Below are positions 42,096 through 43,091 of a stretch of DNA of 64,000 nucleotides, piece after piece. Positions within the stretch are counted from its first letter, which is position 1; every line of letters starts with the position of its first letter. The position numbers and the translations under genes are program-made. The notes below the pieces were generated by a model. That model made no database searches and was not told the DNA's origin. It worked only from the letters and a program-made list of their open reading frames with translations. Source of the stretch: Candidatus Poribacteria bacterium (GTDB lineage: Bacteria > Poribacteria > WGA-4E > PCPOR2b); contig OZ244950.1 of assembly GCA_965222435.1 (NCBI GenBank), positions 1,707,273-1,771,272 on the forward strand, written 5' to 3'.

Positions 42096-43091
42096 ATGCC
42101 ACGCACTTTAATTTTTTGCATCACGATTGTTTTTACATTCATAACTGTCAGCGCAATAAGCGCGGAGGAGAACCAGATGGAAACATTCAAAGACCTGAAA
42201 GTTGGCATGGCAGCACCAGATTTCACGCTCAATGATGGAAATGGAGCCGCCCATAGCCTGCGCGATTATCTAGGGGAAAAGAATGTCGTCTTGGCGTTTT
42301 ATCCCAAAGACTTCACCGGCGGCTGAACGACAGAACTCCGCTCACTCCGGGATGAGTTGAGCCAGATTCAGGGGACAGATACGGTCCTTTTGGGAGTTAG
42401 CGTCGATGATGAAACCTCTCATAAGAAGTTTCAAGAGGAAGAAAATTTTGGATTCCCTCTACTCGCTGATACAGAATTCGCAGCCAGCAAGGTCTATAGC
42501 GGCATCATGGAAAGGTTTCAGGCTTCTAATCGATCGACCTTCATTATTGATCAAGCGGGATATATTCGCGCAATAGATCGAAACGTAAACACACAAACGC
42601 ACGGCGAGGATCTCGTCAAACTGATCAATGAAAGCATTCCCGGACCAATTCAGGTCGGGCAGCCCGCACCAGATCTTATCGCTTCTGATCAGGACGGCAA
42701 AACGTATCAACTCAGCAGCTTTGAAGGGAAAAAGAACGTTGTGCTAGCGTTCTATCCCAAAGATTTCACAGACGGCTGAACGGCAGAAGTCTGCTCGCTC
42801 CGGGATGAGTCGAGTATATTCGCCGAACATGATACGCAGGTCTTTGCAATTAGCGTACAAGATGCAGCGTCTCACAAAAAGTTTGCTGAAGAGAACAATC
42901 TTAACTTTCCATTGCTTGTGGACACAGGACGCCACATTAGTTTGCTCTTCGGTGCAACGGACAAACCGGAGGGCTTGAGCAGTCGCATAACGGTTGTCAT
43001 CGACAAAGACGGACAGATTATCAAACTCGATAAACAGGTCAACGCGAGGACGCACGGCAAGGACCTAGCCGATTTCTTTCAGTCGATGTAA
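42096..43091 (+). CDS. tandem two-domain Bcp/PrxQ-type peroxiredoxin with two in-frame TGA codons: candidate double selenoprotein
   Basis: ORFs 42066..42326 and 42357..42779 plus 42780..43091 are one frame; TGA at 42324..42326 and 42777..42779 follow FYPKDFTGG / FYPKDFTDG where Bcp has the peroxidatic Cys; second domain keeps a resolving Cys (U-TAEV-C); signal peptide at N-terminus; start at ATG 42096 after ggaggg. Confidence 0.7.
42340..42362 (+). promoter_or_regulatory. candidate SECIS hairpin 1
   Basis: gcuca-cuc-CGGGAU-gag-u-ugagc starting 14 nt after UGA (U=+1, stem from +17). Confidence 0.45.
42793..42815 (+). promoter_or_regulatory. candidate SECIS hairpin 2
   Basis: gcucg-cuc-CGGGAU-gag-u-cgagu at identical offset; outer stem A-U replaced by G-C relative to hairpin 1. 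Confidence 0.45.

Follow-up and report, generated by a model that had tools for sequence, protein, structure and literature searches.

A two-domain peroxiredoxin gene with two in-frame UGA codons

The 64-kb stretch of Candidatus Poribacteria DNA analysed here (contig OZ244950.1 of assembly GCA_965222435.1, positions 1,707,273 to 1,771,272; hereafter the window) carries on its forward strand, at 42096-43091, a tandem gene of 331 codons for a two-domain peroxiredoxin of the PrxQ/BCP type, as judged from its translation, its Pfam matches and its orthologues. The gene forms a single frame in which two in-frame TGA codons are the sole interruptions, and each of them is followed by a short hairpin that resembles a bacterial selenocysteine (Sec) insertion sequence (SECIS). 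The first UGA (codon 77, 42324-42326, forward strand) lies in the motif PKDFTGG-U-TTE, which follows the pattern PxxxTxxU, at the peroxidatic Cys position of domain 1, and the second (codon 228, 42777-42779, forward strand) lies in PKDFTDG-U-TAEVC at the peroxidatic Cys position of domain 2. Both domains show the features of Sec-containing peroxiredoxins, namely an AhpC/TSA domain and the PxxxTxxU motif with UGA at the peroxidatic position.

When the translation was searched against Pfam with Cys placed at both TGAs, PF00578 (AhpC/TSA) matched the product twice (E 5.2e-71). The nearest NCBIfam models are those of PrxQ/BCP thiol peroxidases, NF053650 and PRK09437 being the best, and the best relatives in PDB are the BCP/PrxQ structures 3DRN and 2YWN. 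The protein aligns from end to end with Cys-type PrxQ/BCP enzymes (Sulfolobus Bcp 3DRN, 2YWN/4G2E), and both the peroxidatic position and the resolving position match: codon 228 falls on the active-site position of the solved structures 3DRN and 2YWN, and the Cys at +5 from the second UGA occupies the place of the resolving Cys of PrxQ. The Cys-type enzymes differ in having Cys where the window gene has UGA. At the N-terminus the protein has a hydrophobic segment, MPRTLIFCITIVFTFITVSAISA (42096-42164, forward strand), read from the sequence; a hydrophobic N-terminus is also seen in the aligned orthologues, and the segment is probably a signal peptide or a membrane anchor.

The two domains are paralogous and share 45% of their amino acids. 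Their nucleotide sequences are 54% identical overall and 80% identical across the segment from the UGA to the hairpin, and because of this difference the region between UGA and hairpin is taken to have resisted divergence after the duplication.

Scans of genome and metagenome collections yielded 80 loci in Candidatus Poribacteria genomes (59-93% identity), complete chromosomes such as OZ242036.1, OZ220744.1, and OY282444.1 among them, as well as metagenome contigs. The comparative set drawn from them holds 88 distinct full-length orthologues with pairwise protein identities of 49-100%, and every named source genome among them is Candidatus Poribacteria. Checked at the DNA level, TGA is present at both sites in all 88 orthologues; none contains a further stop, and amino-acid conservation spans the full length of the gene. 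More distant homologues carry either Cys (TGC or TGT) or TGA at the UGA position, an alternation that, on the evidence of the alignments, is the signature of Sec.

Mechanical calling of open reading frames (ORFs) cuts the gene into three pieces (42066-42326, 42357-42779, and 42912-43091), which is what one would see if the UGAs were true stops and the locus were a pseudogene, an assembly error, or two or three separate short genes. Such pieces would, however, break the redoxin domains at the active site, and 88 independent assemblies keep both TGAs in frame, lack further stops, and show amino-acid conservation along the whole length. A pseudogene or a set of fragmented genes was rejected on this conservation, and the chance that the UGAs act as true stops here is very slight indeed.

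The reading of UGA in the window

In a protein search, the full-length two-domain relatives (P0001-P0017) show Trp at both UGA sites, and other relatives are fragments that terminate at ...FYPKDFTSG. Public annotation of the gene is therefore either fragmented at the TGAs or, through use of the wrong code, shows Trp at both active sites; recognition of the two SECIS elements restores one enzyme of 331 residues. The database proteins with Trp could be taken to mean that UGA is reassigned to Trp or Gly in the host (genetic code 4 or 25), but the Trp residues are a product of gene callers applying code 4, and close relatives have also been called as fragments that end or start at the TGA (P0018-20, P0124, and P0138). 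TGA moreover terminates 9 of the 38 long ORFs in the window, some of them with the next gene close behind, so that outside these sites UGA works as an ordinary stop. Of the window's 22 long in-frame TGA read-throughs, only three have protein-family support, and all three lie at the active-site Cys of a redoxin domain. From general enzymology, a Trp or Gly as peroxidatic residue would inactivate a peroxiredoxin. An alternative genetic code was rejected on stop-codon usage, and we regard reassignment as highly improbable.

The third of the supported read-throughs belongs to a second candidate selenoprotein gene on the reverse strand (13070-12513, 185 codons, AhpC/TSA domain), which emerged from the TGA read-through scan and Pfam. 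Its in-frame TGA (12932-12930) lies within FWRGAY-U-PKD and is followed by a hairpin of 7 bp at 12903-12920 (GUUCUCC-AGUU-GGAGAAU), the AGUU loop of which starts 16 nt after the TGA. The residue at the TGA is Cys in distant homologues (RGxxCPKD), and the close homologues either have Trp through code-4 calls or are fragments of 132 amino acids that start after the TGA, one of which is named Candidatus Poribacteria.

Structure and stability of the two hairpins

Hairpin 1 (42340-42362, forward strand, G42340 to C42362) has the 5' arm GCUCACUC and encodes (R)SLRDELS, and hairpin 2 (42793-42815, forward strand, G42793 to U42815) has the 5' arm GCUCGCUC and encodes (C)SLRDESS. RNAfold predicts both of them, hairpin 1 as GCUCA-CUC [CGGGAU] GAG-U-UGAGC with its loop at 42348-42353 and a bulged U42357, and hairpin 2 as GCUCG-CUC [CGGGAU] GAG-U-CGAGU with its loop at 42801-42806 and a bulged U42810. 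Each hairpin consists of 8 bp with one bulge and is separated from the TGA by a spacer of 13 nt, its first nucleotide being the 14th after the TGA, and 21 nt lie between each TGA and the loop that follows it. Hairpin 1 is closed at its base by a G-C pair and hairpin 2 by a G-U wobble, outside which U42792-A42816 forms an optional extra pair.

An earlier reading of these sequences (the original prediction) had placed both hairpins 14 nt after the UGA, with a shared core cuc-CGGGAU-gag and a bulged U; all of this holds at both sites, and the folding that it had suggested as a check recovers a stable hairpin after each UGA. The replacement of an A-U by a G-C pair in the stem is also present as described (A42344-U42358 in hairpin 1, G42797-C42811 in hairpin 2). 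A caveat attaches to its description as a compensatory change: the contrast is one between paralogous copies, and the same pair is unpaired in 20 of 87 orthologous hairpins. A possible lower helix around hairpin 2 (CGGC.GAA ... UUCGCCG, 42781-42825, forward strand, RNAfold) is not claimed as part of the element, as its pairs are conserved to between 48 and 100% and its register differs between orthologues.

Compared with dinucleotide shuffles of 52-nt segments, hairpin 1 has a z-score of +0.21, which is not significant, and hairpin 2 one of -2.5. Stability by itself is weak evidence for a function of the hairpins, and the strong evidence is comparative. In a second control the segment was recoded synonymously 1000 times with the peptide unchanged, and here both native hairpins stand out. 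The native energy of hairpin 1 is -9.4 kcal/mol against -4.5 +/- 2.2 kcal/mol in the recodings, 29 of which were equally stable; for hairpin 2 the native value is -10.2 against -4.0 +/- 2.0 kcal/mol, a stability reached by 9 of the 1000 recodings.

Synonymous constraint and covariation in the orthologues

When the 88 genes are aligned by codon, positions +5 to +13 behind each TGA have a relative synonymous codon entropy of 0.22, compared with 0.75 for all other codons (Mann-Whitney p 9.5e-10), and the 12 nine-codon windows of lowest entropy in the gene all lie just downstream of the two TGAs. The RNA-level constraint is confined to the hairpins. Leu+7 is encoded by CTC in 88 of 88 orthologues and in both domains; in other Leu columns as many as six codons occur. 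For Arg+8 the codon is CGG or CGT only, and never CGA, CGC, or AGR, again in both domains, and therefore the loop reads C-G-[G/U]-G-A-U. Glu+10 is always GAG, and the Ser codons over the hairpins are restricted to TCN and AGY in fixed patterns.

With the structure of the original prediction, 95.5% of the cells across 87 distinct hairpins are paired, and sliding the 3' arm lowers this to 40% or less. Two pairs show double changes: at pair 18-38 C-G is replaced by G-C in four sequences and by U-A in three, and at pair 21-35 G-C is replaced by A-U in 11. Over the 87 distinct orthologous hairpins, pair 21-35 is GC in 41, GU in 15, AU in 11, and unpaired in 20; the unpaired cases are mostly A.C, in which the A can pair with U34 instead and so move the bulge. 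Some changes in the 3' arm are non-synonymous (Ser to Asn; Leu/Ser/Met) and yet keep the pairing.

The domain-1 element has two forms. In 53 of the 88 orthologues the 5' arm is unchanged and pairs in a shifted register, CUCGCUC/GAGCGAG, which gives a stem of 7 bp and a loop of 11 nt, or of 5 nt if an inner stem of 2 bp is counted. The pairs of this shifted form are kept in 89-100% of sequences each, and C-G is replaced by G-C five times at pair 18-42. RNAalifold returned no consensus structure over all domain-1 sequences because both registers are present among them, and this was resolved by splitting the sequences into classes. By these comparisons the first SECIS is structurally plastic across the phylum, the window copy having the compact form. 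The exact structure of the original prediction consequently holds in the window and for domain 2 in general, but not for domain 1 of every orthologue; its expectation that orthologues would share a conserved structure was borne out by the 88 of 88 UGAs, the frozen synonymous sites, and the covarying stems.

These data bear on the possibility that the likeness of the hairpins is a by-product of the domain duplication and of conservation of the S-L-R-D-E helix at the protein level, with no function in RNA. The paralogy of the two domains, the presence of the R-D motif after the active site in Cys-type PrxQ as well, and the failure of hairpin 1 to exceed its dinucleotide shuffles in stability would all fit such an origin. 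Protein conservation, however, leaves the frozen synonymous sites (Leu CTC, Arg CGG/CGT, and Ser TCN/AGY) inexplicable, and the non-synonymous changes in the 3' arm that preserve pairing run counter to it. Moreover, sites without Sec that share the R-D residues use other Arg codons (CGC, AGA) and form shorter stems. We therefore hold a by-product of protein conservation to be very unlikely, although it is the least improbable of the alternatives considered here.

Hairpins in the wider PrxQ family

In single-domain PrxQ genes of metagenomes, from soil and elsewhere, the codon at the peroxidatic position is TGA at 36 distinct sites and TGC or TGT at others. In many of these distant Sec-PrxQ genes a loop of CGGGA, CGUGA, or AGGGA is found exactly 21 nt after the TGA, on quite different, unrelated stems (GGACCUG/CAGGUYC, GAAGCUC/GAGCUUC, and GCUG/CAGC), and one distant gene has a GGUC loop. 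At least six contiguous base pairs are present at the hairpin position in 15 of the 36 Sec sites and in none of 15 non-Sec comparison sites, which are mostly Cys homologues (p 0.005). These non-Sec sites have stems of at most 5 bp at this position and show no fixed synonymous codon choice.

Among relatives of the tandem gene there are also variants that have lost one of the two sites (L105:195-700, P0016, P0021; P0018-P0020). In some of them domain 2 has Gly in place of Sec, SLRDE has become SPWSE, and no hairpin is left; in others it is domain 1 that lacks the Sec/Cys as well as the motif, and domain 2 keeps its TGA. To judge from these sequences, Sec and hairpin appear to be lost together.

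Fit to the bacterial SECIS model

A recent review (PMC13188914) summarises the bacterial SECIS (bSECIS) model of bSECISearch (Zhang and Gladyshev, 2005). The model describes a hairpin whose apical loop measures 3-9 nt and whose upper stem has 4-16 bp, with a distance from UGA to loop of 16-37 nt and an energy of -7.5 kcal/mol or lower; one or both of the first two loop nucleotides are G, as a rule with G or U next to it on the 3' side. Hairpin 1 (8 bp, -8.3 kcal/mol) and hairpin 2 (9 bp, -9.4 kcal/mol), both with a 6-nt loop at a distance of 21 nt from the UGA, lie within all of these bounds, and the claim that the loop falls in the range of known elements was correct. The loop starts C-G-G in the window and CGG or CGU in all orthologues, and both hairpins lie inside the ORF, just 3' of a UGA that aligns with the Cys of homologues. 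The window hairpins thus show no essential difference from the model in loop position, spacing, stem, or energy, and the domain-1 element of many orthologues, with its 11-nt loop or register-shifted stem, stands at the edge of it.

A bSECIS scanner based on the global minimum free energy of a 55-nt window, and therefore insensitive, was run on the orthologues. With a stem-tracing rule that tolerates small internal loops it passed 59% of the sequences at the first UGA and 89% at the second, against 8% at other codon positions of the same genes; under a stricter rule the rates were 17, 82, and 3.4%. Applied to the distant genes, it passed 16 of 36 Sec sites and 3 of 15 non-Sec sites, and the position-specific test of stem length described above separated the two groups better than the scanner did.

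Selenocysteine machinery and interpretation

Genes for Sec synthesis and insertion have been linked to this group of organisms before. Slaby et al. (2017; PMC5649159) report an enrichment of SelA and SelB among sponge symbionts, and in Table S4 of the same study the COG counts for Candidatus Poribacteria WGA-3G are two for SelA, one for SelB, and one for SelD. The WGA-3G genome carries an orthologue of the tandem gene with both TGAs (L064).

These reports also bear on the idea that the hairpins drive read-through or pausing independently of SelB, either with insertion of a near-cognate Cys, Trp, or Arg or as a regulated termination that yields a one-domain product. Downstream hairpins can stimulate read-through in some other systems, and a stop at the second UGA would still leave domain 1 complete. 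Against this, the loop obeys the G[G|U] rule of bSECIS elements at the correct distance, the alternation of UGA and Cys in homologues is that expected of Sec, and the COGs of SelA, SelB, and SelD are reported for a Poribacteria genome that carries the gene. Read-through of this kind consequently seems a most improbable explanation.

In our assessment, with a probability of about 0.9, the two hairpins are bSECIS elements, one for each Sec-UGA, on a single mRNA for the tandem PrxQ/BCP peroxiredoxin of Poribacteria. Several observations weigh against this assessment. Hairpin 1 is no more stable than its dinucleotide shuffles. Covariation within the Poribacteria is modest, as three of the eight pairs are invariant and 20 of 87 hairpins have A.C at pair 21-35, and the orthologues are phylogenetically related, so that the counts do not represent independent events. 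The 11-nt loop of most domain-1 orthologues exceeds the 3-9 nt of the consensus, unless the 2-bp inner stem is included. ARAGORN detected no tRNA gene within the 64-kb window, tRNA(Sec) included, and a Pfam search of ten long ORFs found none of selA, selB, and selD there. Finally, the covariance-model search that had been proposed gave a negative answer: no SECIS family of Rfam matched at the gathering score or at E values up to 10, and only chance snoRNA-like hits were returned. The bacterial SECIS models in Rfam are few and lineage-specific, and this negative result thus says little on function.

By analogy with known systems, we infer that SelB binds the hairpins, that Sec is inserted at both UGAs, and that the protein is exported. 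Following the E. coli paradigm, the hairpin 13 nt downstream would stand at the mRNA entrance of the ribosome when the A site is occupied by the UGA. SelB would bind the apical loop (C-G-G/U-G-A-U) and the bulge with its C-terminal domain and, competing with RF2, bring Sec-tRNA(Sec) to the UGA, after which the ribosome would melt the hairpin and translate it as x-S-L-R-D-E-x-S. Sec insertion would then be repeated 151 codons later at the second UGA. The predicted product is a two-domain enzyme with Sec as the peroxidatic residue in both active sites and, in domain 2, a resolving Cys at +5.

Relation to known selenoproteins

Sec-peroxiredoxins with a TxxU motif (COG1225/PF00578) have been known since the first surveys of prokaryotic selenoproteomes (PMC1088965; PMC13188914), and 43 such sequences were present in the Sargasso Sea set (PMC1088965). 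The Poribacteria gene shares with this family the AhpC/TSA fold, the PxxxTxxU motif with Sec at the peroxidatic position, and widespread Cys homologues. It differs in having two Sec positions and a hydrophobic N-terminus: the table of a 2026 review (PMC13188914) gives peroxiredoxins one Sec per protein and lists no peroxiredoxin among double selenoproteins. In the literature we found nothing specific on selenoproteins of Poribacteria or on tandem Sec-PrxQ proteins. Neither the rules of bacterial SECIS elements nor TxxU Sec-peroxiredoxins are new, and nor is the mechanism. What is new here, as read from the 88 distinct orthologues, is the architecture, in which two Sec domains are predicted to be fused, each with a SECIS of its own.

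PrxU of Eubacterium acidaminophilum (NF040737) is likewise a peroxiredoxin with Sec in the active site and is thioredoxin-dependent. The window protein scores 130.8 bits against this model, the cut-off of which is 270, and PrxU is AhpC-like where the window protein is PrxQ/BCP-like.

The E. coli fdhF element has in common with the window hairpins a fixed short spacing from the UGA (13 nt in the window, as against 11 nt in fdhF), a loop with G followed by G or U, a single bulged U, and its own translation. It differs in its loop (GGUC, against CGGGAU here), in the side of the bulged U (U17 on the 5' arm, against the 3' arm here), and in the position of the loop G's (+23/+24, against +26 to +28 here), and there is no sequence similarity between them. 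The Poribacteria hairpins resemble the fdhF element in outline and belong to a different sequence class, and their binding by SelB is a proposal by analogy.

The tandem gene may define an undescribed selenoprotein subfamily, an exported double-Sec PrxQ that was found here only in genomes named Candidatus Poribacteria, with two independently maintained SECIS elements per mRNA, the upstream one using, according to lineage, either of two mutually exclusive registers on a shared 5' arm; for this more specific proposal we see the chances as evenly balanced. If it is true, then together with the second Sec-peroxiredoxin-like gene 29 kb away it would suggest that selenium-based peroxide defence is a trait of these sponge symbionts, and it would offer a natural system in which to study repeated Sec insertion in bacteria. 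The uncultivated sponge symbionts Candidatus Poribacteria appear to use selenium in a two-headed, probably exported peroxiredoxin and in at least one further redoxin, which fits the enrichment of SelA and SelB in sponge symbionts (PMC5649159). With a pair of SECIS elements in a single bacterial ORF and 88 natural variants, the gene amounts to a ready-made mutational series on the loop G followed by G or U and on the tolerance for stem register. The case also illustrates how a SECIS can be built on the codons of a conserved protein motif (L-R-D). The double-Sec PrxQ does not overturn current understanding.

Other features of the window

Between the peroxiredoxin gene and a shikimate kinase-like ORF, the segment 43133-43304 holds nested inverted repeats, with 30-nt arms that are 73% complementary and 19-nt arms that are 84% complementary (43208-43226 / 43244-43262), and also the direct repeat CGGTGCGGTT. 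Further downstream, the forward-strand genes at 44061-45239 and 45337-46536 are tandem paralogues with 78% identity over 394 amino acids. Their proteins have a hydrophobic N-terminus, the HExxH-like metalloprotease motif VHELGHA, and a C-terminal ankyrin-like segment, and by sequence the pair seem to have arisen through recent tandem duplication of a gene for a eukaryote-like-repeat protein.

On the reverse strand, 38491-38618 matches the PyrR binding site of Rfam (RF00515) with 54.5 bits, the gathering score being 54; it lies near pyrimidine-biosynthesis genes of the same strand, a dihydroorotase-like gene (36044-37318) and carA (31785-32987). A transposon-associated gene for an OrfB/TnpB protein of the IS605 family, with a Cas12f-like TNB domain, is found at 57067-58389 (reverse strand) and is overlapped by a long ORF on the opposite strand (57259-58335). 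Two further genes on the reverse strand encode a leucine-rich-repeat protein with dockerin and FlgD-Ig domains (25203-27143) and a fusion of a DNA methylase with an Mrr-like restriction endonuclease domain (33565-35187); we regard both as similar to the eukaryote-like repeat proteins and the defence genes that have been described in sponge symbionts.

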